A DNA stretch of 43,611 nucleotides from contig DOMJ01000003.1 in assembly GCA_003509895.1 (NCBI GenBank), forward strand, positions 351-43,961. The letters are read 5' to 3'. A program made the position numbers and the translations under genes. This stretch comes from Candidatus Uhrbacteria bacterium. Lineage in GTDB: Bacteria > Patescibacteriota > Patescibacteriia > UBA9934 > UBA11717. The notes under the pieces are model-generated. The model searched no databases, was not told the DNA's origin, and saw nothing but the letters and a program-made list of their open reading frames with translations. Of this stretch, positions 4,952 through 40,210 are shown piece after piece (positions within the stretch are counted from its first letter, which is position 1; each line of letters begins with the position of its first letter).

Positions 4952-5899
4952 ATGAAACAACCTATTCGATCGTTTGCTATGCTTGCTCTGTTTTTCGTGC
5001 TCGCATCTCCCGCTCTCGCTGGGCCGGATATTGCAGGGCCGGAAATAAGTGCCGTGTCTCCTTTGACCGCGCAATACACCGTGCCACAACAATTTTCTGT
5101 ATCTGCCCTAGACGAGGCGGGTGTAGCATCTTGCACCTTACTGGTTTCCAGTACCTATGAAACGCCCATGACGTACGATTCTGTTACGGGGATGTGGTCG
5201 GTTACCTACACCTTTACAACGTTTCGATCGGCAAACAGTATTCGTGCCGTGTGCGTGGATACGTACGGCAACTCAACCAATGGGCCAAGCAAAATTATTT
5301 CCGTGTCCGACGCGCCCATTGTTGTATCGCCAGGTGACGGAACACCTGTGGGAGGCGATCCGATAACGATTGACGCTACGGAATGGCCGGCGGCGGATGT
5401 GATTGCAGAATCACCCGTACTTATAAAAACAGTCTGCCCGGGGAATGAGGATTTCACGCACCCTTGCCGCACCGTGTACTTTTTGGATCATGCGGGTAAG
5501 CGTCATGCGTTTACCAATGAGAAAGCGTTCTTTACGTGGTATACCAATTACGATCAGTTGCATTTGGTGAGTACCGCAGTCATGGCATCGTATCCGCTCG
5601 GGCCAAATGTGCGCTATCGTCCCGGTGTAAAGATGATTAAGTTTCCGTCCGTGTCAACAGTGTATGCGGTTGGGCGGTATGGATCGCTCTTTCCGATCGG
5701 TTCGGAGTCGGTCGCAGAGGAGCTCTATGGAACCAATTGGAATCAACAGATTGATGACGTATCGGAAGTTTTTGCAACCAATTATACAATTGATAGTTGG
5801 AATATGATTTCCTCTGCCAGTCAATTTGATCGATCAATTATGCTAAGCTCAGTGAACTCTATCAATGATAATTTAGGAGAGCCTATTTTCCTTGAGTAA
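4952..5899 (+). CDS. secreted hypothetical protein
   Basis: Signal peptide 'SFAMLALFFVLASPALAGP'. The mature part is beta-rich. No family recognised. Confidence 0.6.
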   Translation: MKQPIRSFAMLALFFVLASPALAGPDIAGPEISAVSPLTAQYTVPQQFSVSALDEAGVASCTLLVSSTYETPMTYDSVTGMWSVTYTFTTFRSANSIRAVCVDTYGNSTNGPSKIISVSDAPIVVSPGDGTPVGGDPITIDATEWPAADVIAESPVLIKTVCPGNEDFTHPCRTVYFLDHAGKRHAFTNEKAFFTWYTNYDQLHLVSTAVMASYPLGPNVRYRPGVKMIKFPSVSTVYAVGRYGSLFPIGSESVAEELYGTNWNQQIDDVSEVFATNYTIDSWNMISSASQFDRSIMLSSVNSINDNLGEPIFLE

Positions 5900-5973: not shown

Positions 5974-6403
5974 ACTGTTTAAGAACACTGAATTTTGTTT
6001 TTCCATCCTCAATGCCGATGGTAATGGATCGCGTAACAATACTGTTAGGACCCGTGCCGCCCGGGTTTGCTTTTATATAGCTGCCAATAATCACGTCTTT
6101 ATCGGGATTGGCGATCACGGAGTTTTTGGCACTCACGGTGTCCTGAAATCCTTGTGCCATAAGTTGCGTATGAAACGAATCGCGTACCTCCTGCCAGGTT
6201 TGATCTGTGTAGCCAATCACCGTGTAATGACCGGCAACATCTGTGACGTTTGTAACGACACTGTCGTTTGGTAAATCCATCTCTAGAATCGTCTCAAGCG
6301 TCGGCACCTCGTAGACGGCGGTAGATGCTGGCGCTTGCGAAGAAGTGCATCCGGCACCCAATAAGAGAAACAGGAGGGCAACGGGAAAAACGTGTTTGAT
6401 CAT
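5972..6403 (-). CDS. small lipoprotein, function unknown
   Basis: N-terminus 'MIKHVFPVALLFLLLGAGCTSS' is a signal peptide plus lipobox LLGAGC. Confidence 0.7.
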   Translation of the reverse strand: MIKHVFPVALLFLLLGAGCTSSQAPASTAVYEVPTLETILEMDLPNDSVVTNVTDVAGHYTVIGYTDQTWQEVRDSFHTQLMAQGFQDTVSAKNSVIANPDKDVIIGSYIKANPGGTGPNSIVTRSITIGIEDGKTKFSVLKQ

Positions 6404-8989: not shown

Positions 8990-9400
8990 ATGAAACGCAC
9001 AACACTTGGCGGCATGGTTATCGTGGCGCCGTTTGCTCTCCTGTTCTTGATCCTTATTGCGTATGCAATTTCTAACGCGGTTGCGAGTACGATGATTTTA
9101 GAGGGCTCGCTTTCCAATCAAGTAACCTCTGCAGACACAGCGAGTTTAAACAGCAATCCCTCGGATCAAGCGGCATTAAAAATAAATCCATCCGCATTAA
9201 CCATGGAGGATTCGGAGACGACCGCCTTCCAGGTGCAAGGTGAATCCGTTGATTCTTCCGTTAATGCTTCCGTTGTTGTTATGAGCATTTTCAATGCCGT
9301 TCTTGGGTTCTTGGGTGTGCTGGCTGTGCTCGGCATGTTTGTTTGTGTTCCATTGGGAATCTACTTGCTTGCAACAAAAGGAAAAGCACAAAAGTCATGA
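8990..9400 (+). CDS. small two-TM membrane protein with an S/T/N-rich extracytoplasmic loop
   Basis: TM helices lie at both ends ('MVIVAPFALLFLILIAYAI', 'LGFLGVLAVLGMFVCVPLGIYLL'). TATAAA at 8977-8982 is 7 nt upstream of the ATG. The stop overlaps the next start (ATGA). Confidence 0.6.
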   Translation: MKRTTLGGMVIVAPFALLFLILIAYAISNAVASTMILEGSLSNQVTSADTASLNSNPSDQAALKINPSALTMEDSETTAFQVQGESVDSSVNASVVVMSIFNAVLGFLGVLAVLGMFVCVPLGIYLLATKGKAQKS

Positions 9401-9987
9401 TGGAGGTTGAGAAAAAATTTTATCTTTCCCCGGAGGAAGAGGCCCGATTAATTGAGGGGGCAACCCGGGTGTCCACAAAAACGATCGGCGATGTGTATTT
9501 TGATCGAGGCGTGGAGTTGTGTATAACGGATCGATGGTTACGATTGCGCGACGGAATATTTGAGCTAAAATTGCCGATGCACGTCGTGGCCGATGGGAAA
9601 CCGTCCGTGGATCGGTACCAGGAGATAGAAAACGACGCAGACATTATCGCGGCTCTTGAGCTCAACCTTTCCGAGCTGTCGGAAGAGACACTTACAGCGA
9701 TTGGATTTGAAAGAATCTCCGACTATAAAACGGAGCGCACAAGCTACCAGAAGGATGGCTTTACGATCGTCTTTGACAAGATGGATTTTGGGTTTGAAAT
9801 TTGTGAGATTGAGCGCGTGGTTCCTGAGGGAACGGATTTAAATCAAGTGGCCGATGAGATTCTTGTGTTTGCGCGTAAACATGGCCTAAAAGAGGAACGT
9901 GTGCTTGGAAAATTACTCGTGTATTTGCAACGGAGGGACCCGGTTCGCTTTCAAGCCATGCAGGAGGCTGGCGTTATTCCTGAATAA
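9397..9987 (+). CDS. CYTH-domain (triphosphate tunnel metalloenzyme) protein, ThTPase-like
   Basis: N-terminal ExExK signature 'EVEKKF', then 'WLRLR', 'ELKLP', 'YQEIE' and 'DFGFEICEIE'. The C-terminal 'LLVYLQRRDP' resembles the 25-kDa thiamine triphosphatase as I recall it. Start set at the ATGA overlap with the upstream gene (track ORF starts at 9343). Confidence 0.75.
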   Translation: MMEVEKKFYLSPEEEARLIEGATRVSTKTIGDVYFDRGVELCITDRWLRLRDGIFELKLPMHVVADGKPSVDRYQEIENDADIIAALELNLSELSEETLTAIGFERISDYKTERTSYQKDGFTIVFDKMDFGFEICEIERVVPEGTDLNQVADEILVFARKHGLKEERVLGKLLVYLQRRDPVRFQAMQEAGVIPE

Positions 9988-11103: not shown

Positions 11104-11173
11104 AAGAGATAAACGATTGAAGTCAAAAAGGCGCTTATTTTAGTCAAATATTTTAGTTCAAACAAACGAGGGG

Positions 11174-11202
11174 TTGACAAACGCCTCGTTTTGTGTTATA
11201 AA
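11174..11202 (+). promoter_or_regulatory. near-consensus sigma70-type promoter (TTGACA-17-TGtTATAAA)
   Basis: TTGACA at 11174-11179, a 17-nt spacer, and TATAAA at 11197-11202 preceded by TGt. The -35 box sits in the loop of a hairpin (AACGAGG 11165-71 / CCTCGTT 11184-90, then TTTTGTGTT) that could also act as the cfa terminator. Confidence 0.6.
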
Positions 11203-11208
11203 GGGTCC

Positions 11209-11670
11209 ATCGCAATGGGTGAGCAACTGGCTCCCAGCGATTGACGGCGACCGCCCCTTCTGGGGCGAGACAATCGTTGCTCTCTGCGGAGAGAGTAACG
11301 TGTCGGCCCTGAAAAGCCGATAGATCCCCAATGGTACTCCGTCATTGGTACCAAAGGGCGTGGCAGCGACGGCGGCTGCAACGGTCCAGTTCGTCTTTGG
11401 CAAAACAGGAGCAATCCTACCATTGACGACCGATACAGAGGAAAGAAAGGAACGCGTTCGTGCTGTAAGCGCGTGGGTACCTTTCCTCTGTATGGACCAA
11501 AAAAAACATACGGCCAATCCCTCCCGTCCGATTGGGTGAGGCCGTTTGCAGGGGGTGTGCCGGAGGCACGCCGGCGCACCCCCTCCCTTTCCCTCACGGG
11601 GAAAGAACATCGACGTCCGCGAGGCGCTTAGCATGGAGTTATCCATCTGCTGGCGCCTCGTTTTCGTTTT
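11209..11670 (+). ncRNA. candidate large structured ncRNA, family not recognised
   Basis: It lies between the promoter above and a terminator (GAGGCGC 11621-27 / GCGCCTC 11653-59, then TTTTCGTTTT). Many local helices are present, including 13-bp stems at 11433-45/11481-93 and 11551-63/11571-83. I counted 69/100 GC in 11521-11620. No ORF has an SD. The end coordinates are estimates. Confidence 0.5.
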
Positions 11671-11712
11671 ACGCGCACGTCATCTAATTTCGTTGCGTTT
11701 ACCGCTCAATAT

Positions 11713-25930: not shown

Positions 25931-26185
25931 ATGGTTTATAACAAATCACTATCTATGGATATTGAAGCGGCAAAGTTGTTAGCGGCAGGTATTTGTATGG
26001 GTTTGGGTGCTATTGGTCCCGGTATTGGAGAGGGATATGTTGGAGGAAAAGCTTTGGAGGCTATTGGTCGCAATCCTTCTATTCAAAATAAAATTATCCC
26101 AAACATGGTGGTTGCTATGGCGATCACCGAGTCCACAGGTATTTATGCGCTTGTGATTTCTTTGATTATTCTCTTCGTGCTCTAA
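25931..26185 (+). CDS. atpE: F-type ATP synthase Fo subunit c
   Basis: Hairpin protein with 'GLGAIGPGIGEGYVGGKA' and the carboxylate helix 'AMAITESTGIYALVISL'. An alternative start at 25955 (MDIEAAK) gives 76 aa. Confidence 0.92.
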   Translation: MVYNKSLSMDIEAAKLLAAGICMGLGAIGPGIGEGYVGGKALEAIGRNPSIQNKIIPNMVVAMAITESTGIYALVISLIILFVL

Positions 26186-26188
26186 CCT

Positions 26189-26704
26189 ATGGACGCCCTG
26201 GCAAAACTTGGCATTGATGGATGGGGCATTTTTCTGTATCTCGTGAACTTTGGTGTATTGCTATTTGTTCTGCAGCGCTTTGCCTACAAGCCGTTACGGC
26301 TCTATTTGGATCAGCGTCGCGAGCAAATTAAGGAAAACATAGAGGAGGCAGAGTCTCTTCGAGCCACGTTGGAAGCAGAGCGAGAACGTGAGGTTATTGA
26401 TCGTAGGGAGCGCGAGGCACATCTGCAAGCACGACTTCTTGAAGCAAAACGTATTATGAAGGAGGAGGCAAAGAGTCTTCTCACAGATGCGGTGTCACGG
26501 CGCGACGTTATCCTAACACAGGCGGGAGAACAGGCACAACGACTCACTGAGGGGGCACTACAAGAGGCGGAAGAGGAAACCATCAAGCGCATTCGTCAGG
26601 TTGTCCTGCATGTTCTTGGCGATTCACTCTCCGAGGATGTTGTAAAAGAAAGTGTTCGTGAAAGCTGGAAGCACGTGACCGGTACATCGTCCTATGGTCA
26701 GTAA
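26189..26704 (+). CDS. atpF: F-type ATP synthase Fo subunit b
   Basis: An N-terminal TM, then a long charged coiled coil ('LRLYLDQRREQIKENIEEAESLR...'). Called partly from operon position. Confidence 0.88.
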   Translation: MDALAKLGIDGWGIFLYLVNFGVLLFVLQRFAYKPLRLYLDQRREQIKENIEEAESLRATLEAEREREVIDRREREAHLQARLLEAKRIMKEEAKSLLTDAVSRRDVILTQAGEQAQRLTEGALQEAEEETIKRIRQVVLHVLGDSLSEDVVKESVRESWKHVTGTSSYGQ

Positions 26705-27332
26705 CGCGATTTCCGCCATGGTGGTAGATGTTCTGCTTGTTGTGAGAGATCGAGCGTTTTTTGCATGCGAACAAGAAAAAAAATCCGTTCGTATTACAGA
26801 TGTTTTAGGAAAGAGCTACCCACGATCCCTCAGGGCATACGTAGGCAGAGTCTCTGAAGAGGTGTGCCTCCAGCAGATAGAGGAGATGGCGTCACGATTG
26901 GGATCAGACTCCTCCTTATTTCAGGACGTGCCAAAATTGGGAGAGAAAAACGATCTTTTTCTGGCATGCCTTGATGTGTTGAAGACGGATTTGTTGAAAA
27001 ACCTCACTTCAGCCGTGGAGCAGCGGTCATTTTTTGGCAGATATTGCGCGCATATTGTCCGTGGGGGTGCTCTCTATGAGCGAGCGTTTATACGTGAAGT
27101 TCAGGAACTACTCTTGTACGCCGGTCAAGGAGATTCGCCGTTGATTCAGATTGCTGCTGATCTTTCAGAATCAGAAAAGCAAGAGATATTGTGTGCCGTG
27201 CCAATGCCAGGCATTCCTGCGATACAGGTGCACAGAGAGTTATTGGGTGGTGTGCGACAGTTTTATAACGGAACGATGCAGGATGATAGTTGGCGGGCGC
27301 GACTGATACGCGTGTTAAATGTTGTTACATAG
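26694..27332 (+). CDS. atpH: F-type ATP synthase subunit delta (divergent)
   Basis: Called from its position between atpF and atpA, and the C-terminal 'VHRELLGGVRQFYNGTMQDDSWRARL', which resembles the OSCP/delta C-terminus. The N-terminal half is not recognisably OSCP-like to me. Confidence 0.7.
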   Translation: MVSNAISAMVVDVLLVVRDRAFFACEQEKKSVRITDVLGKSYPRSLRAYVGRVSEEVCLQQIEEMASRLGSDSSLFQDVPKLGEKNDLFLACLDVLKTDLLKNLTSAVEQRSFFGRYCAHIVRGGALYERAFIREVQELLLYAGQGDSPLIQIAADLSESEKQEILCAVPMPGIPAIQVHRELLGGVRQFYNGTMQDDSWRARLIRVLNVVT

Positions 27333-27334
27333 AT

Positions 27335-28843
27335 ATGGCAAACGAATCATTACAAAAATTTTTTCACGGGCTCGATAGCGCTCTTCAGCACCTTGAGCAA
27401 TCAACACAAACGCAGGAAGCAGGAGTGATCCGATCCGTGAAGGATGGAGTGATCCACGTGTACGGGTTACTGGGATTGCGTATGGGGGAGGTTGTTCGAA
27501 TTGACGAGGCAGGCGTGGAGGCACTCGTGATGCAGTTGGAGGGCAGAAACGCCTACGCAGTTTTATTGCAGGCAAGTCAATCCGTAAAGGAGGGCCAGGC
27601 GGTCCAGACAACGGGTCAGTTTTTGGGAGTGCGGGTGAGCGAGCAGATTCTTGGTCGCGTTGTAGACGCGCTTGGCCGTCCTTTAGATGAACAGACACCA
27701 TTGAAGGGTGGGTCTTTTATGCCTTTGGAGCGTATTGCACCGGGTGTTATGACGCGCGAACCGGTTTCCGAACCCGTACAAACAGGTATTGTGGCGATTG
27801 ATGCCATGATTCCAATTGGTCGCGGACAACGAGAGTTGATTATTGGAGACAGACAAACAGGAAAAACAACTGTCGCCATAGACGCTATCTTAAACCAAAA
27901 AGGTCAGGGGATGGTGTGCGTGTACGTGGCCATTGGACAACGCGAATCAAGTGTTGCGACGGTTGTGCGAACACTACAAGCGCAGGGTGCTATGGAATAC
28001 ACAGTTGTTGTTAACGCTTCTGCCGCTTCGCCTGCCGTAACCCAATACCTTGCCCCATACACGGGAGCAGCGATCGGCGAGTATTTTATGGAGAAGGGTC
28101 AGGATGTGCTTATTGTCTACGATGATCTGTCCAGACATGCCGTCAGCTACCGTGAACTTTCTCTTTTGCTGCGACGACCACCGGGACGTGAAGCCTATCC
28201 GGGAGACGTGTTTTATTTGCACTCTCGTCTTTTGGAGCGCGCGGCGCGTTTGGATGCAAAACATGGGGGTGGCAGCATGACGGCTCTTCCCATTGTAGAG
28301 ACGCAGGCAAACGATGTGTCTGCCTATATTCCGACAAACGTTATTTCTATTACCGACGGACAGATCTTTTTGGAGTCTGACTTGTTTTATAGTGGCACAC
28401 GTCCGGCTATTAACATTGGTGTTTCCGTATCTCGCGTGGGAGGAGCGGCACAAACAAAGATCATGAAGAAAGTCTCCGGAAGCGCTAAGCTTGATCTTGC
28501 GCAGTACTATGAGTTGGCGGCGTTTACCCAGTTTGCAAGTGAACTTGATGACGCAACAAAACAACAGCTTACGCGCGGACAGCGTGTTGTTGAGGCAATG
28601 AAGCAAAAAGAAAATAGTCCGTATGCTCTTTGGAAAGAAGTCGTTGTGCTACGGGCGGCCACGGGCGGGTACTTGGATGAGATTCCGGTAGCGGAGGTAA
28701 AAGTACGCCTGGAAGCTCTTCTTCAGCGTGTCACATTGGAATATCCTGCGTTGATTAAATCCATTGAAGCGGAAAAGGTGCTCACGGACGAAATTGACGC
28801 AACACTCAATACGGCTATCGGGGCAATCGTAACGTCTTTCTAA
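27335..28843 (+). CDS. atpA: F-type ATP synthase F1 subunit alpha
   Basis: Walker A 'GDRQTGKT', 'ELIIGDRQ' and 'PGREAYPGDVFYLHSRLLERA'. Start at 27335 (the track ORF starts at 27290 inside atpH). Confidence 0.96.
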   Translation: MANESLQKFFHGLDSALQHLEQSTQTQEAGVIRSVKDGVIHVYGLLGLRMGEVVRIDEAGVEALVMQLEGRNAYAVLLQASQSVKEGQAVQTTGQFLGVRVSEQILGRVVDALGRPLDEQTPLKGGSFMPLERIAPGVMTREPVSEPVQTGIVAIDAMIPIGRGQRELIIGDRQTGKTTVAIDAILNQKGQGMVCVYVAIGQRESSVATVVRTLQAQGAMEYTVVVNASAASPAVTQYLAPYTGAAIGEYFMEKGQDVLIVYDDLSRHAVSYRELSLLLRRPPGREAYPGDVFYLHSRLLERAARLDAKHGGGSMTALPIVETQANDVSAYIPTNVISITDGQIFLESDLFYSGTRPAINIGVSVSRVGGAAQTKIMKKVSGSAKLDLAQYYELAAFTQFASELDDATKQQLTRGQRVVEAMKQKENSPYALWKEVVVLRAATGGYLDEIPVAEVKVRLEALLQRVTLEYPALIKSIEAEKVLTDEIDATLNTAIGAIVTSF

Positions 28844-28844
28844 C

Positions 28845-31149
<2,305 letters not shown>

Positions 31150-31150
31150 T

Positions 31151-31555
31151 ATGCCAACGTTTCGTTTGCAACTAGTAACACCCGTAGAGACGCTCTTTGA
31201 TGGAGCGGTTGATTCGGTGCGTCTGAAGACCGATCTTGGGCGCATGGAGGTATTGCCAAATCACGCAACACTCGTGGGAACGATTTTGTACTCAAAAGTA
31301 TACTCGCGCCATCTGGGGGTAGAAGAGAAGTACATTATTCGCCACGGGAGCGTGCAGGTAAATAAGCAGGGAGATGTAACAATCTTGGCGTTGGAAGCAC
31401 ACAAGGAGTCGGAAATGACGGTCAAAACGATGGAGGAATATCTGCACTTTTTGGCAGAGCAGTTGGACGACCCACATGCGTTTAATGATTATCAAAAACA
31501 GTTTTTGCAGGATCAACGAGAGGCACTTGAGCATGCCATAGCCGACGTTGAGTAG
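31151..31555 (+). CDS. atpC: F-type ATP synthase F1 subunit epsilon
   Basis: Start at 'MPTFRLQLVTP', 1 nt after the atpD stop. Called from operon position and size (134 aa). Confidence 0.88.
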   Translation: MPTFRLQLVTPVETLFDGAVDSVRLKTDLGRMEVLPNHATLVGTILYSKVYSRHLGVEEKYIIRHGSVQVNKQGDVTILALEAHKESEMTVKTMEEYLHFLAEQLDDPHAFNDYQKQFLQDQREALEHAIADVE

Positions 31556-31560
31556 TGCGT

Positions 31561-31605
31561 AAGACCCGTAGCAGGTAAGACCCATGCGCGGGTCTTTTGT
31601 TTTTG
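31561..31605 (+). terminator. atp operon intrinsic terminator with a duplicated 5' arm
   Basis: GGGTCTT (31590-96) pairs with AAGACCC (31577-83). Alternatively CGGGTCTT pairs with the upstream copy AAGACCCG (31561-68). TTTTGTTTTT follows. Confidence 0.8.
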
Positions 31606-31663
31606 ATGAGGAATTCTTCTGGTAAAAGCATGAGATATAAAGGCGTTTTGTGGATAAGGAGAA

Positions 31664-31692
31664 TTGACAGAATAGTAAAATTCACGTATAGA
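31664..31692 (+). promoter_or_regulatory. sigma70-type promoter TTGACA-17-TATAGA
   Basis: A perfect -35 at 31664-69 and TATAGA at 31687-92, about 45 nt upstream of the first GC-rich ORF. Confidence 0.6.
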
Positions 31693-31736
31693 AGAGCAAC
31701 CAAAAGGCCGTGATGGCTATTGGTGAAGGAGTGAAG

Positions 31737-31982
31737 ATGACGCTTGGGGAAATGTTGGATGCTCTGAAGGAGATTACTCAACGGCTCGTCCGCAATGAAC
31801 GGATCATGGGTGCGACGATGAGTCGCTACATTGAGCTCAAGGGAGAACTCTGTGCTGCTCTTTGTCGGCAGCTGCAGGTGAGGAACATCGATGAAGCGCG
31901 AGCGCTTCCCTCGGACACGGCGATGGGCGAGCGTGTCAAGAATTTGTTCGCGAGTCTTAGTCGTCACGCAGCGGCGTTCTAG
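31737..31982 (+). CDS. GC-rich ORFan A (81 aa, predicted helical), no family recognised
   Basis: SD GAAGGAG (31725-31) lies 5 nt before the ATG at 31737. The track ORF starts at 31710. GC3-rich codon usage is unlike the flanking genes. Confidence 0.55.
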   Translation: MTLGEMLDALKEITQRLVRNERIMGATMSRYIELKGELCAALCRQLQVRNIDEARALPSDTAMGERVKNLFASLSRHAAAF

Positions 31983-32022
31983 TCGGAAGACGGTCCACTG
32001 GGACCGCAGAGAGGAGAAAGAG

Positions 32023-32337
32023 ATGATCATTACGGTGCAAGAGGCGCTGCGGCGCGTAGAACGAATCAGGGGCATCTCGGCCGATACCAGGGCGGAGATT
32101 CCGATGGGATGGGAGGACACCCTTGCGGAGCTCGTGGATGGCCTTCTCGTTGACATCTTCCGGCAGTGCCAGGTGTGCGAGGTTGGTGGTCTGACGGACG
32201 ATCATCAACGAGAGCTGCTCGATGCAGTCGCGAATCTCTCGTTCAACGCACTGGTGAAGCACGGACAGCTGGTGGCGCCAAGCAGGCCCCAGCTTCTCCC
32301 GGCTCCGGTCCGTCCTCCTCGGGGCTGGAGGCTCTGA
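32023..32337 (+). CDS. GC-rich ORFan B (104 aa, acidic helical core, Pro/Arg-rich tail), no family recognised
   Basis: SD GAGGAG (32011-16) lies before the ATG at 32023. I counted 61/100 GC in its first 100 nt. The track lists it inside ORF 31891..32337. Confidence 0.55.
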   Translation: MIITVQEALRRVERIRGISADTRAEIPMGWEDTLAELVDGLLVDIFRQCQVCEVGGLTDDHQRELLDAVANLSFNALVKHGQLVAPSRPQLLPAPVRPPRGWRL

Positions 32338-32350
32338 TTACGATTGAGGT

Positions 32351-32400
32351 GCACTCGTGCGGCAGGTCCTCTGCCGGCTCGCGGGTGCGCTGATTTTTTT
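32351..32400 (+). terminator. putative intrinsic terminator after ORFan B
   Basis: An interrupted hairpin of about 15 bp (32351-32388, with GGCAG/CTGCC at the tip) is followed 5 nt later by T7 (32394-32400). Confidence 0.5.
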
Positions 32401-32420
32401 ATGCACGCGCTACGCCACCC

Positions 32421-32449
32421 TTGCTTTTATTACAAAACGTGCTTTAATA
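32421..32449 (+). promoter_or_regulatory. possible promoter TTGCTT-17-TTAATA
   Basis: It lies in the only AT-rich patch of the island, about 55 nt upstream of ORFan C. Confidence 0.4.
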
Positions 32450-32505
32450 CCACCGCGCTGCAATGCTGCAGCCGGAACAGGCCTCCAAGAGGCCGAGAGG
32501 AAGAG

Positions 32506-32823
32506 ATGCGAGCAGGCATTGCGATCGCGAATGCGATCAAAGCGAACATGAAGAATCTGGGAGACGATGAGTTCGGTAGGTCGCTGTCCACCGTGACCGC
32601 CCTTCTCACCGTTATGACAGAGTCTGTGGACGAATGCCACCTTGATGAGGTGACCGCCTGTCTGGAGGCCGTCATGGGCAGTGAACGACTGCAGATAGAC
32701 CCGAGGGCGGGTACTGCGTTCGAACGTGCCACTTGTACCAATCTGTTGGGTGAGCTGGAGTATAAGCTCAAGGAACGCAAGACGGCGCTGGAAGAGGCGC
32801 ACAGACGCATCAGACACTACTAG
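32506..32823 (+). CDS. GC-rich ORFan C (105 aa, predicted helical), no family recognised
   Basis: SD-like GAGAGGAAGAG lies immediately before the ATG at 32506. The track lists it inside ORF 32344..32823. Codons are GC3-rich. Confidence 0.55.
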   Translation: MRAGIAIANAIKANMKNLGDDEFGRSLSTVTALLTVMTESVDECHLDEVTACLEAVMGSERLQIDPRAGTAFERATCTNLLGELEYKLKERKTALEEAHRRIRHY

Positions 32824-32832
32824 CTACGACGT

Positions 32833-32855
32833 AAAGGGGCCCGAGTGGTCCCTTT
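32833..32855 (+). terminator. stem-loop after ORFan C (possible terminator, no U-run)
   Basis: AAAGGGGCC-CGAGT-GGTCCCTTT is a 9-bp stem with one G-U pair. Confidence 0.4.
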
Positions 32856-32863
32856 AAATTATC

Positions 32864-32892
32864 TTGACGCAGACCGCTCAAATCGCTACACT
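32864..32892 (+). promoter_or_regulatory. lysK promoter TTGACG-17-TACACT, 9 nt upstream of the ATG (leaderless candidate)
   Basis: TTGACG at 32864-69 and TACACT at 32887-92, with the ATG at 32902 and no SD. Confidence 0.55.
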
Positions 32893-32901
32893 CAACACAC
32901 T

Positions 32902-34524
32902 ATGGCACAACGAATTTCAAAAAATATCTTGCAAGCAGACGGAATCTTTTGGGGAAAAGCCATAGCGGAAGAGATTATTCGTCAACGGCCGGAGAAAGAT
33001 GTTTATGTTGTTTCTTCCGGTATCAGTCCTTCGGGGCCCATCCATTTTGGAAACTTTCGGGAAATTGTTACGCAGCACGTGGTGAAGCGGGAACTTGAGC
33101 AGCTGGGAAAAAAGGTCCGTTTTGTTTTTGTGTGGGATGATTTTGATGCAATGCGAAAAGTGCCCGCAGGCGTGGATGAGAGCTTTGCTGAATTTCTACG
33201 CAAACCGCTTTCCGCTATCCCATCTCCCACAGGAGAGGGGAACTGGGCACAGGTGCATGAGCGTGTGTTTGAGGCAACACTCAAAGAATTTGGAATAGAA
33301 ACAGAATTTTTGTATCAAACACAGGCGTACAAGAGCGGACAGTACGACGCCTTTCTGAAAACGGCCATGCAAAAACGGGAGGTGATCGCCCGTATTTTGT
33401 TGCGTCACATGTCGGACAAGGCAAAAGCAGCTAAGGAAATTGTGGAAGAGACATATGTGGCAACCTTTTATCCCGTCTCTGTTTTTTCTTCTTGGACGGG
33501 CAAGGATACAACGGAGATTTTGGCGTACGACGGAGAGAGCACTATCACGTATCGTTGTTTAGAAACAGGTAAGGAGGAAACGATTGATTTTACACAAACG
33601 CATCAAATGAAGTTTGCTTGGAAGGTAGACTGGGCTATGCGTTGGGCACTTATGGGCGTAGATTTTGAATCCGCCGGCAAGGATCACAATTCGCCAAACG
33701 GGTCGTTTGATGTGAGCTCGGACATTGTACGCGAGGTATTTGAGGCGGAGGGCCCTATTGGTCTTGCGTATGAATTTATTGGTATACAGGGGTTGGGAGC
33801 AAAAATGAGCGGTTCCAAAGGGAACGCAGTGACCCCCGGTCAACTCGTAGAGATGTACGAAATTCCACTTTTGTTGTGGCTGTATGCGCGCAAGCTTCCG
33901 TCTCAGCGATTTGATTTGGCGTTTAATTCGGAAATCGTGCGACAATATAGCGAGTTTGATCGTGAGATTGAATTATTGCATAAGGGAGAATTATCCGATG
34001 TGCGCGTGGAGGCGTTAAAGGTGGCCGGAGCAGACATGACGCCGGTTAATCCTATTCCGTTGCGGCAGGCAATCGCGCTCGGGCAGATTGTGCAATGGGA
34101 TGTAAAAAAGGTTGTTTTTATGCTCACGTCGCTCCAGATGGATTACAATCAGGCGAGCGTGGCCTCCAGACTTCAAAAAGCGCGTGCCTATTTGGAAACC
34201 TATAATCGGGAGGAGATGGTTGCTCTGCGCGAGGAGATGAACACGGGATATCAAGCAACGTTAACAGCTGATCGGAAAGCCGCCATTCAACAATTGCGAC
34301 AATTTTTGCAGAGTGGGGAGGAACAAATTGACGTTATTGAGAAAGAAATGTACGAGATTCCCAAGCGAGAGGGGATGGATGAGAAGGAGCTCAAGATGGC
34401 GCAGCGAGCCTTTTTTACAGACGTGTACAATTTGTTGATCGGTAAAGACACCGGTCCGCGATTGTCTACGTTTTTATGGGCCATTGATCGTCAAAAAGCG
34501 CTAGAACTCTTAGACGTATCGTAA
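32902..34524 (+). CDS. lysK: lysyl-tRNA synthetase, class I
   Basis: Class I signatures 'SGISPSGPIHFGNFRE' (HIGH-like) and 'KMSGSKGN' (KMSKS-like). Start at 'MAQRISKNIL' (the track starts at a GTG at 32845 inside the upstream hairpin). Confidence 0.9.
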   Translation: MAQRISKNILQADGIFWGKAIAEEIIRQRPEKDVYVVSSGISPSGPIHFGNFREIVTQHVVKRELEQLGKKVRFVFVWDDFDAMRKVPAGVDESFAEFLRKPLSAIPSPTGEGNWAQVHERVFEATLKEFGIETEFLYQTQAYKSGQYDAFLKTAMQKREVIARILLRHMSDKAKAAKEIVEETYVATFYPVSVFSSWTGKDTTEILAYDGESTITYRCLETGKEETIDFTQTHQMKFAWKVDWAMRWALMGVDFESAGKDHNSPNGSFDVSSDIVREVFEAEGPIGLAYEFIGIQGLGAKMSGSKGNAVTPGQLVEMYEIPLLLWLYARKLPSQRFDLAFNSEIVRQYSEFDREIELLHKGELSDVRVEALKVAGADMTPVNPIPLRQAIALGQIVQWDVKKVVFMLTSLQMDYNQASVASRLQKARAYLETYNREEMVALREEMNTGYQATLTADRKAAIQQLRQFLQSGEEQIDVIEKEMYEIPKREGMDEKELKMAQRAFFTDVYNLLIGKDTGPRLSTFLWAIDRQKALELLDVS

Positions 34525-34536
34525 TATGCCATAATC

Positions 34537-34563
34537 AACCCCTGCTTTGCGGGGGTTTTGGTT
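34537..34563 (+). terminator. lysK intrinsic terminator
   Basis: aacccctgc-ttt-gcgggggtttt, followed by ggtttgtg. Confidence 0.7.
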
Positions 34564-34581
34564 TGTGTACACACGTATTCC

Positions 34582-34610
34582 TTGACAGGGTGTTGGAAAT
34601 GACATAGATT
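34582..34610 (+). promoter_or_regulatory. sigma70-type promoter TTGACA-17-TAGATT
   Basis: A perfect -35 at 34582-87 and TAGATT at 34605-10. Confidence 0.6.
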
Positions 34611-34643
34611 TCTATCCGACCTTATCGGTCGGCGGAAGAAATC

Positions 34644-35021
34644 ATGGACGTTGTAAAGCCTGTTTTATTGAGACTGATTGGCATGTTCGTGGACAGCAAG
34701 GGGGTCTGGGAGCTGGTTGTTGGCTGGGACCAGGAGGCGCGGGCCTGCACGCTGCGGGAGATCCTGCGGCGGGCCTGGATGTGTTACCGGCTGGCGGACC
34801 AGCTGGACCGGGTAGGACTTCTGACGGAGGCACTGAGAACACCATCCGTGGTAATTCTGCCACGTCTCAGCTTCATCAACGAGGCGGAACGCCTCTTGGA
34901 TGCGCAGGCGGAAGTGGCTTACATGGCCACACACAAGGCGTGTCCGGCGCAATGTCCGCGCGAATTGTTCTATGATGAGGGACCACCTACCCAGCACGGC
35001 GTGGTGTCCATCGAAGCCTAG
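34644..35021 (+). CDS. GC-rich ORFan D (125 aa), no family recognised
   Basis: It has its own promoter, a 5'-UTR hairpin (CCGACC 34616-21 / GGTCGG 34627-32), a weak SD (GGAAG) and its own terminator. I counted 56 and 67 GC in its first two 100-nt blocks. Confidence 0.5.
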   Translation: MDVVKPVLLRLIGMFVDSKGVWELVVGWDQEARACTLREILRRAWMCYRLADQLDRVGLLTEALRTPSVVILPRLSFINEAERLLDAQAEVAYMATHKACPAQCPRELFYDEGPPTQHGVVSIEA

Positions 35022-35040
35022 CGGAACACGTCCGCCTTCA

Positions 35041-35075
35041 CAGCGAGAGCCGTCCTGGCCCTCGCTGAATTTTTT
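35041..35075 (+). terminator. intrinsic terminator after ORFan D
   Basis: CAGCGAG (35041-47) pairs with CTCGCTG (35061-67), with an inner GCC/GGC pairing, followed by AATTTTTT. Confidence 0.7.
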
Positions 35076-35085
35076 GAAGCCTCTG

Positions 35086-35094
35086 TGATAAGAT
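35086..35094 (+). promoter_or_regulatory. extended -10 element TGaTAAGAT, 6 nt upstream of the udg ATG (leaderless candidate)
   Basis: The sequence tgataagat-agaaac-ATG has no SD. Confidence 0.45.
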
Positions 35095-35100
35095 AGAAAC

Positions 35101-35709
35101 ATGATGCAGGACCAGAAACAGCGGGCAATGCAGGCTATTCACAAGGAACTTGTGGCCTTTCATGTATCCCCGTTGTATGAAGAACGGATTCAAAGCGGGA
35201 TGCAGCCCGTAATAGGAGAAGGATCATTGCAGGCGCGCGTGGTGTTTATTGGAGAGGCACCCGGCAAAAAAGAGGCGTTGTCCGGCCGGCCGTTTTGTGG
35301 AGCATCCGGAAAAGTCCTAGATCAACTACTGGAAGAATCCGATTTGGCTCGTGAAGACGTGTACATCACGAACATTGTAAAAGATCGACCGCCCAATAAT
35401 CGAGATCCAAAGCCTGAAGAGATAACGCTCTATGGACCATTTTTGGACAGGCAGCTCTTCATTATTCAACCACAGATTATTGCAACGCTTGGCCGATTTT
35501 CTATGGAGTATATCCTGCGTCGTTATGGATTGGAGGATCAACTGAGATCGATCTCCGAGGCACACGGTGTTGCCCATACGGCTATCACGGATTTTGGCCC
35601 TGTGTGTATCCTGCCGCTCTACCACCCGGCGGTTGCTGTGTATAATAGAAAGAGGTTTGACGAGCTGCTTACGGATATGCAATTACTCAACTCTTTTTAC
35701 TCGCATTGA
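35101..35709 (+). CDS. udg: uracil-DNA glycosylase, family 4-type (variant without the Fe-S cysteines)
   Basis: 'FIGEAPGKKEALSGRPFCGASGKVLD' and 'LPLYHPAVAVYN'. The N-terminal Cys cluster of classical family 4 is absent. Confidence 0.82.
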   Translation: MMQDQKQRAMQAIHKELVAFHVSPLYEERIQSGMQPVIGEGSLQARVVFIGEAPGKKEALSGRPFCGASGKVLDQLLEESDLAREDVYITNIVKDRPPNNRDPKPEEITLYGPFLDRQLFIIQPQIIATLGRFSMEYILRRYGLEDQLRSISEAHGVAHTAITDFGPVCILPLYHPAVAVYNRKRFDELLTDMQLLNSFYSH

Positions 35710-37285: not shown

Positions 37286-37318
37286 GTTTGTGCGGCCTGC
37301 CGTGAATTTTTCTATCTG

Positions 37319-37327
37319 TGCTAAAAT
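37319..37327 (+). promoter_or_regulatory. extended -10 element TGcTAAAAT, 6 nt upstream of the helicase ATG (leaderless candidate)
   Basis: The sequence tgctaaaat-gcgcac-ATG has no SD. Confidence 0.5.
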
Positions 37328-37333
37328 GCGCAC

Positions 37334-40210
37334 ATGTCGAATGTACTTGAAGGATTAAACGAGGAGCAATTGCAGGCCGTCACGCACACGTCCGGTCCGT
37401 TGATGATTATTGCGGGTGCAGGTACAGGCAAAACAACGGTTATGACACGCCGTATTGCTTGGCTTATAGAACAGAATCTGGCAGAACCGGATCAAATTTT
37501 GGCATTAACCTTTACGGAAAAGGCTGCCACAGAAATGGAAACTCGAGTTGACAGGCTGCTCCCGTATGGGTATGTGGATCTATGGATTTCTACGTTTCAT
37601 GCGTTTTGTCAGCGGATCCTGTTGGAACACGGGTTTGATATTGGATTGACCAACGATGCGCAGCTTCTTACAGAAACGGAGGCCTGGTTACTTATACGCA
37701 ATCATTGGGATCGTTTTGGTCTACACTACTATAAGCCACTTGGCAACCCAACAAAGTTTTTGCGTGCGCTGCTGACACACATTTCTCGGTTGAAGGATGA
37801 AGCAGTTGGACCCGAAGAATACAAAGCACACGTTGCATCGTTAACAGACATAGAGGAAGAAGAACGGTCTCGACTCATGGAGCTTGTACGAGCGTATGAG
37901 GTGTACGAGGCAATTTTGCACGAGCAGACGGTTTTGGATTTTGGAGGGCTTGTTTTGTACACGCTCAAATTACTGCGTGATCGACCATCTATCCTCAAAC
38001 GGTATCAGCAGCAATTCCGATATGTGATTGTGGATGAGTTTCAGGACACTAATTGGGCGCAATACGAGATTGTTCGATTGTTGGCGGGCGAACAGCAAAA
38101 TGTTGCTGTTGTGGGCGATGATGATCAAGCTATTTATAGATTTCGTGGGGCCTCTATCTCCAACATTTTGCAATTTGAGAAAGATTTTCCCGGAACTCAG
38201 CGTGTTGTACTTACCAAAAATTACCGTACCGTACAGCCGATTTTGGACAAAGCCTATGCTTTTATTGCACTCAATAATCCAAGAAGACTGGAAGTGTCGC
38301 TGCAGGAAACACACGGATTGTCTAAGAAGCTACAAAGTCAGGTCTCCGGAGAGGGGAGTATACGTCATCTTCATGCAGAGTCTCTTGCTGCAGAAGTCCA
38401 AATTGTCCTACGTGAGATGACGATGCTCAAGCAGTCAACGGACTGCGATTGGAGTGACATAGCCATTTTGGTACGAGCAAACGATCACGCGGATCCATTT
38501 TTGTCGGCGATGGATTCAGCCAGTATTCCGTATCATTTTTTGGCACGACGTGGCTTGTATAGAAAACCCATTGTCCTTGATGCCATTGCTCTGTTGCGCG
38601 TTATAGATGATCCGTTTGATTCCTCGAGCCTCTACCGCCTCTACGCACACCCACTTATTGGTATTTCGGAACAAGATCTGATTTCCGTTACGCACACGGC
38701 AAAGCAAAAAGGCGTGTCGTTAGTGGAGGCCATACATTTTTCCGAATGTGTTCTTTCACCCGATGGGGCGTCCCGTTTGCAGGAATGGTCGCAGTTTCTT
38801 AAGGAAATTCGACTCTCCGCAAATCGTCGTAACGCGCTAGAGGTTTTTGCAGAAGCCTTAAAACAGTCCGGACTTTATGGGGCCCTCTTACAATCGGACG
38901 AGGCGGCACAATGGGAACAGTCAAACTATCTCCAACAGTTTTACGAGCGTGTGCGGCGTTTTATTCAAACAAATAGGGATACGAGCCTCCATGCTTTTGT
39001 CCAAGAATTTGAACGAGAACGACTTGCGGGCGAGGAGGGAGGCCTTTCAATAGATACGCAGTCGGGACCAGATGAGGTGCAGGTGATGACGGTACACGGA
39101 TCCAAGGGGTTGGAGTTTCGGTTTGTCTTTTTGTTGAATCTTGTGAATCGTCGGTTTCCGGCACAGCGTAGAACGGATCCAATTCCGTTACGGGAGGATT
39201 TAATCAGGCAACCACAAACCGATGGAGATTCGCACTTGGAAGAAGAACGTCGCCTCCTCTATGTTGGAATGACACGAGCCAAGGAACGACTCTATTTTAC
39301 TTCGGCAGACGTATATAGCGGTACTCAGACAAAAAAAATTTCCCAATTTTTGTCTGAAATGGGGTACGAGAAGCCGGAGACGTCCGCAGTGTTTACAGGT
39401 TCCTTTTTGGATGCTGCAAGTACACCCGATCACCTTCTTACGTCCGGTATGACGTTGCCCATTCCCACAGTTTTTTCTTTTACCCAGCTTGTCACCTACG
39501 GTCATTGTCCCTTGCAGTATAAGTTTGCGCACATTCTCACTATTCCAACGTTCGGTGGCCCGGCGCTCAGTTTTGGAAAAACCATACATAATACACTCCA
39601 ATTGTTTCTTGAAGACAGACTTCAATCGGTAGAAGGGGGAGGGCCAATAAAGCCGTTTCTGTCGGAGGAGGAACTGATCACACTCTACCACGAGCAATGG
39701 ATTGAGGACTGGTATCAAGACACGTCCCAGCAGGACACATACAAGCGGGAAGGGGAAGAGAGCTTGCGCGCGTATTATCAGATACTCACAACACATCCAC
39801 CGGAACCGCTCTTTTTGGAACGCGGGTTTACCATCAAAATAGAGGATATTATTATTCGAGGACGGGTGGATAGGATTGATCGTGTTGAGGGAGGAGTGGA
39901 AATTATTGATTACAAAACAGGAACACCCAAGACGCTCAAAGACCTGTCCACAACAGATAAGATGCAGCTTATGCTGTACCAACTTGCCGCAAAGGAATTA
40001 TTTGGATTAGAGCCAAAACGCCTTACGTTCCATTACCTCAAGGATCATTCTCAGGTTTCGTTTTTGGCCACAGATGAAGAATTAACTGGCCTGAAAAAAA
40101 CCATTCAAAAGCAGGTGGCTCGTATTCGGGATCGGCAATTTGATCCAACTCCCGGGTTTATGTGCCAACACTGTGATTTTAAGGAGATTTGCCCCTTTCG
40201 ATCCATATGA
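37334..40210 (+). CDS. UvrD/PcrA-type SF1 helicase fused to a C-terminal Cas4/AddB-like PD-(D/E)XK Fe-S nuclease
   Basis: Helicase motifs 'IIAGAGTGKTT', 'VIVDEFQDTN', 'VVGDDDQAIYRFRGA', 'LTKNYRT', 'VMTVHGSKGLEF' and 'LLYVGMTRAKERL'. Nuclease motifs 'YGHCPLQYKF', 'GRVDRID...IIDYKTG', 'QLMLYQLA' and 'CQHCDFKEICPF'. Confidence 0.9.
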   Translation: MSNVLEGLNEEQLQAVTHTSGPLMIIAGAGTGKTTVMTRRIAWLIEQNLAEPDQILALTFTEKAATEMETRVDRLLPYGYVDLWISTFHAFCQRILLEHGFDIGLTNDAQLLTETEAWLLIRNHWDRFGLHYYKPLGNPTKFLRALLTHISRLKDEAVGPEEYKAHVASLTDIEEEERSRLMELVRAYEVYEAILHEQTVLDFGGLVLYTLKLLRDRPSILKRYQQQFRYVIVDEFQDTNWAQYEIVRLLAGEQQNVAVVGDDDQAIYRFRGASISNILQFEKDFPGTQRVVLTKNYRTVQPILDKAYAFIALNNPRRLEVSLQETHGLSKKLQSQVSGEGSIRHLHAESLAAEVQIVLREMTMLKQSTDCDWSDIAILVRANDHADPFLSAMDSASIPYHFLARRGLYRKPIVLDAIALLRVIDDPFDSSSLYRLYAHPLIGISEQDLISVTHTAKQKGVSLVEAIHFSECVLSPDGASRLQEWSQFLKEIRLSANRRNALEVFAEALKQSGLYGALLQSDEAAQWEQSNYLQQFYERVRRFIQTNRDTSLHAFVQEFERERLAGEEGGLSIDTQSGPDEVQVMTVHGSKGLEFRFVFLLNLVNRRFPAQRRTDPIPLREDLIRQPQTDGDSHLEEERRLLYVGMTRAKERLYFTSADVYSGTQTKKISQFLSEMGYEKPETSAVFTGSFLDAASTPDHLLTSGMTLPIPTVFSFTQLVTYGHCPLQYKFAHILTIPTFGGPALSFGKTIHNTLQLFLEDRLQSVEGGGPIKPFLSEEELITLYHEQWIEDWYQDTSQQDTYKREGEESLRAYYQILTTHPPEPLFLERGFTIKIEDIIIRGRVDRIDRVEGGVEIIDYKTGTPKTLKDLSTTDKMQLMLYQLAAKELFGLEPKRLTFHYLKDHSQVSFLATDEELTGLKKTIQKQVARIRDRQFDPTPGFMCQHCDFKEICPFRSI

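Follow-up and report, generated by a model that had tools for sequence, protein, structure and literature searches.

Small, GC-rich transcription units with Shine-Dalgarno sequences beside lysK in Candidatus Uhrbacteria, and a proposed hotspot of moron-like cassettes

Bacteria of the Candidate Phyla Radiation (CPR, Patescibacteria) have small, mostly syntenic genomes, and the route by which they gain new genes is poorly understood. One short interval of such a genome raises this question directly: what are the small, GC-rich open reading frames (ORFs) that lie between atpC and lysK, and where did they come from? The DNA analyzed here, referred to as the window, is a 43.6-kb chromosomal fragment of a groundwater member of this group, whose nearest relative is annotated as Candidatus Uhrbacteria bacterium. 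Contigs identical to the window occur in ENA ERZ909580 and JGI 3300009031. Since this organism's contigs are 99.98–100% identical to one another, there is no within-population variation to analyze. The neighborhood consists of the atp operon, lysK, UDG, TK, and addA, with no phage genes nearby. Working from the letters alone, the original prediction had read positions 31606–32863 as one inserted cassette of three genes, acquired horizontally from a phage, plasmid, or other donor. Our analysis confirmed the observation and partly supported the interpretation. Two tiny sites beside one housekeeping gene, lysK, repeatedly hold different complete transcription units. As predicted, these units are unlike the core genome: their base composition, codon usage, and promoter type all differ, and the sharpest contrast is in the signal for translation initiation. 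We consider it fairly probable (roughly 0.6) that they are autonomous, moron-like cassettes in a chromosomal gene-turnover hotspot flanking lysK in the Candidatus Uhrbacteria clade.

Transcription units on both sides of lysK

The interval between atpC and lysK carries three plus-strand ORFs, A, B, and C, with the lengths and starts predicted earlier and arranged, as predicted, in two units; a fourth, D, lies between lysK and UDG. Their parts are listed below. The promoters of A-B, C, and D are predicted from their match to the consensus, those of A-B and C by direct reading of the sequence.

31664 to 31692, plus strand: promoter of the A-B unit, TTGACA-17-TATAGA
31725 to 31731, plus strand: Shine-Dalgarno (SD) sequence of A, GAAGGAG
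31737 to 31982, plus strand: ORF A, 81 amino acids, basic (isoelectric point, pI, 8.8), no family match
32011 to 32016, plus strand: SD of B, GAGGAG
32023 to 32337, plus strand: ORF B, 104 amino acids, acidic (pI 5.6), no family match
32349 to 32400, plus strand: intrinsic terminator of the A-B unit, a long hairpin followed by T7
32421 to 32448, plus strand: putative promoter of C, TTGCTT-16-TGcTTTAAT, with an extended −10
32495 to 32505, plus strand: SD-like purine tract of C, GAGAGGAAGAG
32506 to 32823, plus strand: ORF C, 105 amino acids, acidic, predicted all-helical
32832 to 32856, plus strand: hairpin closing the C unit, 10-bp stem, no T tail, directly 5′ of the lysK −35
34582 to 34610, plus strand: promoter of D, TTGACA-17-TAGATT, 10 of 12 consensus matches
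34644 to 35021, plus strand: ORF D, 125 amino acids, GC 0.60
35041 to 35075, plus strand: terminator of D, a hairpin followed by T6, directly 5′ of the extended −10 of the leaderless UDG gene

A and B are separated by 40 nt and share one promoter and one terminator. The C promoter had been given as TTGCTT-17-TTAATA; the TTGCTT hexamer stands, but the remainder is better read as an extended −10. Similarly, a stem-loop does end the C unit, although it has no T tail. Because a unit of the same composition recurs just 3′ of lysK (D as a whole, 34582–35075), lysK is flanked by such units on both sides, and the anomaly is not confined to 31606–32863, where it had been placed. The encoded proteins had been described as small, acidic, and helical. 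This holds for B and C, which are acidic and predicted to be helical, but not for the basic A. Single-sequence AlphaFold2 models, of low confidence for both proteins, returned a helical B (pLDDT 51) and a C with four helices (pLDDT 57). A codon model trained on the other cassettes scored the plus frame of C at 24 bits and its other five frames at 5 bits or less; for D, the annotated frame scored 23 bits and the others −1 or less.

The composition of the units sets them apart from the rest of the window, in which mean GC is 0.483 with a standard deviation of 0.037 (300-nt windows). The strongest GC peak of the whole window, 0.64, falls at the cassette, and the cassette ORFs reach 0.56–0.62 versus 0.48 around them. 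A recount reproduced exactly the earlier figures of 61/100 at 32023–32122 and 43/100 at the start of lysK. GC at third codon positions (GC3) is 0.63, 0.70, 0.68, and 0.71 for A, B, C, and D, respectively, whereas the 39 host genes span 0.41–0.55, one doubtful minus-strand ORF excepted. Each of the four ORFs lies above all 39 host genes in GC3, in 2-fold and 4-fold codons, so that the GC3 richness noted earlier is a true outlier. The codons CTG, GCG, and CGG are two to three times commoner in the cassette ORFs than in the host genes.

The translation signals differ as well. The purine-rich SD sequences reported for A, B, and C are present at proper spacing, whereas a GGAG or GAGG core precedes only about 2 of the 39 host gene starts, both of them doubtful TTG starts. 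Host genes such as lysK, UDG, and addA are leaderless, with starts 6–10 nt past a −10 or extended −10 box (32864–32904, 35080–35103, and 37310–37336).

The original prediction had recognized no motif in the proteins, and family searches agreed: A–D gave nothing significant in Pfam, PHROGs, PADLOC, NCBIfam, or PDB sequences. Wherever the cassette proteins occur in public databases, they are entered as unnamed or hypothetical. When B was compared exhaustively by HMMER with 1.84 billion cluster representatives, covering ~15 billion proteins, the copy in a sister species was the sole match, and no donor was found. A word-indexed protein search with B retrieved B itself only.

The lysK flanks in six species

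Relatives were found by a lysK search, and six species, including the window organism, were compared over ~12–16 kb per relative. The sister species is a Candidatus Uhrbacteria metagenome-assembled genome (NCBI GCA_002774875.1, labelled L008/L010). Its lysK is 80% identical to that of the window, and the identities of lysK, UDG, and TK make the two sisters. It carries A and B at the same place between atpC and lysK. The orthologue of A is equal in length and gives an ungapped alignment with 49% amino acid identity, a dN/dS of 0.37, and identities of 0.59, 0.72, and 0.43 at the first, second, and third codon positions. That of B, also ungapped and of the same length, is 63–66% identical, with a dN/dS of 0.18. 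In both, divergence is concentrated at third codon positions. Because of the equal lengths, gap-free alignment, third-position divergence, and dN/dS well below 1, A and B are read as real protein-coding genes under purifying selection, which bears out the coding selection that had been proposed as a check on the plus-strand frames.

The signals of the A-B unit and its arrangement were retained as well. Both promoter hexamers are the same in the two species, while the spacer has diverged; the GGAG core of the A SD is kept, the B SD reads AAGGAG in the sister, and the stem of the terminator is preserved through compensatory changes. ORF B combines a predicted helical core with a conserved Pro/Arg-rich tail, APxRPPRGWR. 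The pI values in the window and sister are 8.8 and 9.5 for A and 5.6 and 4.9 for B, so that the two proteins are of opposite charge in both species. GC3 in the sister is 0.72 for A and 0.70 for B, against 0.46–0.58 in its host genes.

The age of A-B was judged by identity at 4-fold sites between the window and the sister, which is 0.41 ± 0.10 for A, 0.44 ± 0.08 for B, and 0.31–0.43 for the neighbors lysK, UDG, TK, YgjP, addA, and one hypothetical gene. Since the divergence of A-B is in step with that of the neighboring orthologues, the unit appears to predate the split and to have been inherited vertically since. By parsimony, it would have been gained in the common ancestor of the window organism and the sister. 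C, in contrast, is present in the window organism only among the six species. In the sister, the terminator of B abuts the equivalent of the lysK promoter, which sits directly 3′ of it, so that the C segment (~32401–32858) would have been either inserted in the lineage of the window or lost from the sister. Unit D is likewise absent from the sister. In that species, the stretch from atpC to the A-B promoter contains a further pair of small ORFs, X1 and X2. The single three-gene insertion originally proposed is therefore not upheld, as A-B is shared at the same site and C is separate.

Adjacent to this site, the whole atp operon of the sister (L010 1–4964, compared with window 26023–31555) has the appearance of a xenologous replacement. 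The sister's atpC, atpG, and atpD are 29–34%, 32–33%, and 67–68% identical, respectively, to those of all five other species, whose atp genes share 63–94% identity with one another. The right-hand limit of the replaced segment coincides with the junction between atpC and the cassette.

Four further species, L019, L022, L020, and L021, keep the order atp–lysK–UDG–TK–YgjP–addA, with lysK identities to the window of 72% for the first two, 70% for L020, and 69% for L021. Synteny is gone in relatives at 64% lysK identity, and a scan of species-representative genomes yielded no relative other than a non-syntenic one whose lysK is 48% identical. The six species share the layout atp-[variable]-lysK-[variable]-UDG-TK. 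None of the five relatives has atpC directly followed by lysK, the arrangement that had been raised as a check on an insertion. Four of the five carry other ORFs in this gap, and in L022 it measures 418 bp and holds no called gene. A-B is absent from the four further species, each of which has other ORFs at one or both lysK flanks. Those without a family are as follows.

L019: u226, u185, and d95
L020: d136 and d146
L021: d135
L022: d141

No Pfam or PHROG family was found for these flank ORFs, and across the two intervals (atpC to lysK and lysK to UDG) in the six species, the flank ORFs are mutually unrelated, the closest pairs excepted. They form the top GC peaks at each locus, and their GC3 is 0.62–0.91 beside host genes at 0.46–0.69. 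TTGACA-type promoters lie 5′ and hairpins 3′ of them. The five relatives resemble the window in the near-absence of SD sequences from core genes: over the six species, SD cores precede 12 of 13 cassette ORFs versus 6 of 114 core genes (Fisher p ~1e-11). Neither an integrase nor any other mobile-element gene was found in the relatives' loci examined.

Two further observations were made at these flanks. Directly 5′ of lysK, L019 (6604–6957), L020 (6604–6966), and L021 (6507–6929) carry a host-type gene with low GC3 and no SD, encoding a ~120-amino-acid membrane protein with CxxC pairs; the window, the sister, and L022 lack this gene. The related pair d136 and d135 (L020 8700–9110 and L021 8664–9071) has a GC3 of 0.88–0.91 and a dS of 0.43, while the flanking core genes of the same two species have dS values from 0.76 to above 2.6. 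Either strong codon bias at synonymous sites or exchange of the cassette after the lineages split would account for the low dS of this pair.

Repeated hairpins were also seen in relatives. In L020, a ~55-nt hairpin region after d136 (9123–9158) recurs after d146 (9693–9728) with 89% identity, and L021, which lacks d146, has a single copy of this type of hairpin, that is, an empty site. In L019, a 37-nt hairpin occurs at 5723–5759 and 6336–6372 in copies that are 97% identical and bracket the promoter and ORF of u185. No such copies are present around the window cassettes, whose hairpins are mutually unrelated. A likeness between the hairpin of the window's B terminator and that of d95 in L019 did not extend beyond a 17-nt core and was put down to chance.

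Origin and role of the units

From the anatomy, coding selection, synteny, turnover, and lack of homologues described above, we infer an origin and a role for the units. Each would follow one plan: a sigma-70-type promoter, a leader of ~30–50 nt with an SD, one or two small ORFs, and a closing hairpin. The unit's own promoter would start its transcription, translation of its ORFs would be SD-dependent, in a genome whose native genes use no SD, and the closing hairpin would stop read-through into lysK or UDG, thereby insulating the next housekeeping gene. A-B would have entered before the split from the sister and been held by purifying selection since then, while C and D would be separate units, seen only in the window organism. 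A foreign origin would best explain the codon usage. The cassettes may derive from a GC-richer, SD-using gene pool, possibly one belonging to the clade's own mobilome or to that of its host organisms; the GC3 of ~0.9 in the cassettes of some relatives would point to a donor pool of ~65–70% GC, and the values of 0.63–0.72 for A–D could be partly ameliorated. Their products would be accessory, lineage-specific small proteins. Furthermore, GC-richness and the SD are plausibly causally linked, in that structured, GC-rich mRNAs would need an SD for translation. Initiation without an SD depends on start regions with little structure, and an SD permits initiation on more structured leaders (PMC5397173, PMC3155529).

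Two known systems come close to this picture. A moron has its own promoter and terminator and a GC content unlike that of its neighbors, and is present in one genome but absent at the same position in relatives; morons were first defined in HK97 and HK022 (PMC3594210). Similarly, the units here have their own promoters (A-B, C, and D, by consensus matches) and their own terminators (T7 after B and T6 after D, with a hairpin lacking a T tail after C). They deviate in GC from their neighbors, are absent in relatives (C and D from the sister, A-B from four species), and consist of small accessory genes flanked by genes that, in relatives, are either neighbors or separated in another way. Unlike phage morons, however, they reside on a cellular CPR chromosome between housekeeping operons, with no PHROG match nearby, and differ from the host in translation signal, the SD being present in one and not in the other. 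The second system is the chromosomal hotspot of horizontal gene transfer, in which accessory genes turn over rapidly within a fixed interval between core genes (Oliveira et al. 2017, PMC5635113). In the six species, the same core-gene interval holds different accessory genes at each of two sites, with rapid turnover and no mobile-element gene in the loci examined. In contrast to such hotspots, the lysK sites are tiny (one or two small ORFs each), lie as a pair around one gene in a reduced CPR genome, and take up inserts that are each a complete transcription unit. Both kinds of system are known, and the novelty lies in their occurrence in an unusual CPR chromosomal setting; the locus alone reveals no new function or mechanism. 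If the pattern is general, SD-led, GC3-rich, hairpin-bounded ORFs would provide a search signature for accessory genes in SD-less CPR genomes, such genomes would offer a natural test of SD-dependent and SD-independent initiation coexisting in one cell, and A and B would be defined, conserved small proteins for testing.

Several points weigh against the proposal of moron-like cassettes in a hotspot. No donor was found in any database, leaving composition and signals as the grounds for a foreign origin, and morons were defined in phages, whereas nothing at this locus is phage-like. A–D are known here from sequence alone; for C and D, which have no comparator, coding status is judged from codon statistics and context. 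The hotspot itself is drawn from the loci of six species together with the single window. In addition, A-B has a GC3 of ~0.70 in the window organism and the sister alike, although synonymous divergence between the two is near saturation. For passive amelioration to fit this, the donor GC3 would have to have been ~0.9, with entry only a short time before the split; the retained GC3 could instead reflect selection or an endogenous origin.

Such an endogenous origin is unlikely in our estimation. The units would be native, fast-evolving genes that arose by tandem duplication of promoter-ORF-hairpin units followed by divergence, with GC3 and SD selected as a distinct translation regime. Besides the GC3 retained by both A-B orthologues, this would be in keeping with the failure to find a donor among the proteins searched, with a weak family signal linking D, d136/d135, and u185 in a leave-one-out hidden Markov model test, and with the 89–97% identical hairpins that bracket a cassette in two relatives, as tandem duplication would leave. 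These bracketing hairpins fit either insertion at a resident hairpin or tandem duplication of a promoter-ORF-hairpin unit and subsequent divergence. However, the ORFs of the bracketed units are unrelated to their neighbors, and neither pairwise nor profile tests showed the cassettes to be paralogous: hhalign probabilities among A, B, C, and D were ~0.06–0.2, and the shuffle tests gave no result that holds up once 66 comparisons are allowed for. It would also be difficult for selection, acting on small genes under weak constraint, to raise GC3 to the 0.86–0.91 seen in the cassettes of some relatives beside host genes at 0.46–0.69.

A further question is whether A-B could be a two-component conflict module, toxin-antitoxin-like or an immunity pair, which we regard as doubtful. 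Conflict modules typically lie in variable islets under a strong autoregulated promoter. Like type II toxin-antitoxin systems, A and B are two small, adjacent genes in a variable islet, and because they are co-transcribed and of opposite charge in both species, it is plausible that they act as an interacting pair; their conserved common promoter and terminator, and the turnover-hotspot setting, would suit this as well. On the other hand, neither matches a toxin or antitoxin in Pfam, NCBIfam, or PADLOC, no recognizable DNA-binding domain was found in A or B, and the two genes lie 40 nt apart, whereas those of conflict modules usually overlap. The quality of the structure models is too low for comparison. 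The toxin-antitoxin-like, anti-defense, or regulatory functions that the original prediction had offered as speculation are still speculative, and no toxin-antitoxin or defense family was matched in PADLOC, Pfam, or NCBIfam.

The single, recently acquired three-gene island from a phage or plasmid between atpC and lysK is decidedly improbable. The atypical GC, codon usage, SD sites, and promoters would agree with it, and C and D, absent from the sister, may be recent. For A-B, however, synteny in the sister refutes it: the unit lies at the same site and has diverged as much as its neighbors, so that it is not recent and not one event with C. Searches for a source were also negative. GenBank phage records gave no match (tblastn for C and D), IMG/VR scans were negative for A, B, C, D, u226, and u185, and PHROGs gave no phage link; no plasmid-type homology turned up either, plasmid records not being among those searched. 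As noted originally, no integrase is apparent: the genes called in the ~6 kb to each side include no integrase family, and there are no repeats at the cassette borders. Of the proposed horizontal acquisition, a foreign origin persists as the best account of the codon usage, whereas no phage or plasmid link was found.

A more speculative idea, to which we give little credence, is that an undescribed mechanism inserts whole promoter-SD-ORF-hairpin units (~450–610 bp) at hairpins of terminator-promoter junctions, with no integrase nearby, the units coming from a GC-rich, SD-dependent pool, possibly the organisms that host these episymbionts. It is supported by the two independent cases of bracketed cassettes, one with an empty site in a close relative. 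Integron cassettes and clusters of attC sites lacking integron integrases (CALIN) offer a parallel: they too consist of single small ORFs, mostly without known relatives, each followed by a hairpin-forming element, and the cassettes of two relatives lie between near-identical hairpins in the manner of neighboring attC sites. Unlike those systems, the hairpins here are shorter (25–55 nt) and the cassettes bear their own promoters. The attC R″ and R′ motifs (RYYYAAC and GTTRRRY) were found in none of the B, C, and D hairpins or those of L019 and L020, by inspection and with no covariance model run. A complete integron would have an adjacent integron integrase and CALIN at least two attC sites; with no attC sites, and no integrase family among the called genes within ~6 kb, the locus qualifies as neither.

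Finally, that the ORFs are spurious and the spacer is non-coding, a structured RNA, or an antisense gene is extremely improbable, and was rejected for A and B: long minus-strand ORFs exist too, the fold of the C region is somewhat stronger than that of its shuffles (z = −3.0), and a separate GC-rich patch at 11.2–11.7 kb does look like RNA, but the conserved start, stop, and length of A and B and their pattern of divergence speak against it, the minus-strand ORFs are not collinear between the window and the sister, the A-B transcript folds like shuffled sequence (z = 0.14), Rfam gave no match on the cassette region, and the codon model prefers the plus frame for C and D.

Edges of the variable sites and a third GC-rich patch

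The two variable sites are delimited by signals of the neighboring housekeeping genes.

31577 to 31605, plus strand: intrinsic terminator of the atp operon, left edge of the upstream site; hairpin AAGACCCATGCGCGGGTCTT followed by a T-rich tail
32864 to 32892, plus strand: lysK promoter, TTGACG-17-TACACT, right edge of the upstream site
34537 to 34557, plus strand: lysK terminator, left edge of the second site

With its ATG at 32902, the lysK mRNA is predicted to be near-leaderless. At the left edge, a 16-nt tandem direct repeat (GTAGTGCGTAAGACCC / GTAGCAGGTAAGACCC) at 31552–31583 takes in the stop codon of atpC together with the 5′ arm of the operon's terminator.

A third GC-rich patch of the window, at 11170–11690, contains no convincing ORF. 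In it, a TTGACA-17-TATAAA promoter precedes ~480 nt of very strongly folding sequence, a stretch that closes with a hairpin and a T run. Neither an Rfam match nor a transfer-messenger RNA call was obtained for it. The minimum free energy of its plus strand is −232 kcal/mol (z = −8.45 versus shuffles), and the patch is a candidate for a large structured non-coding RNA.

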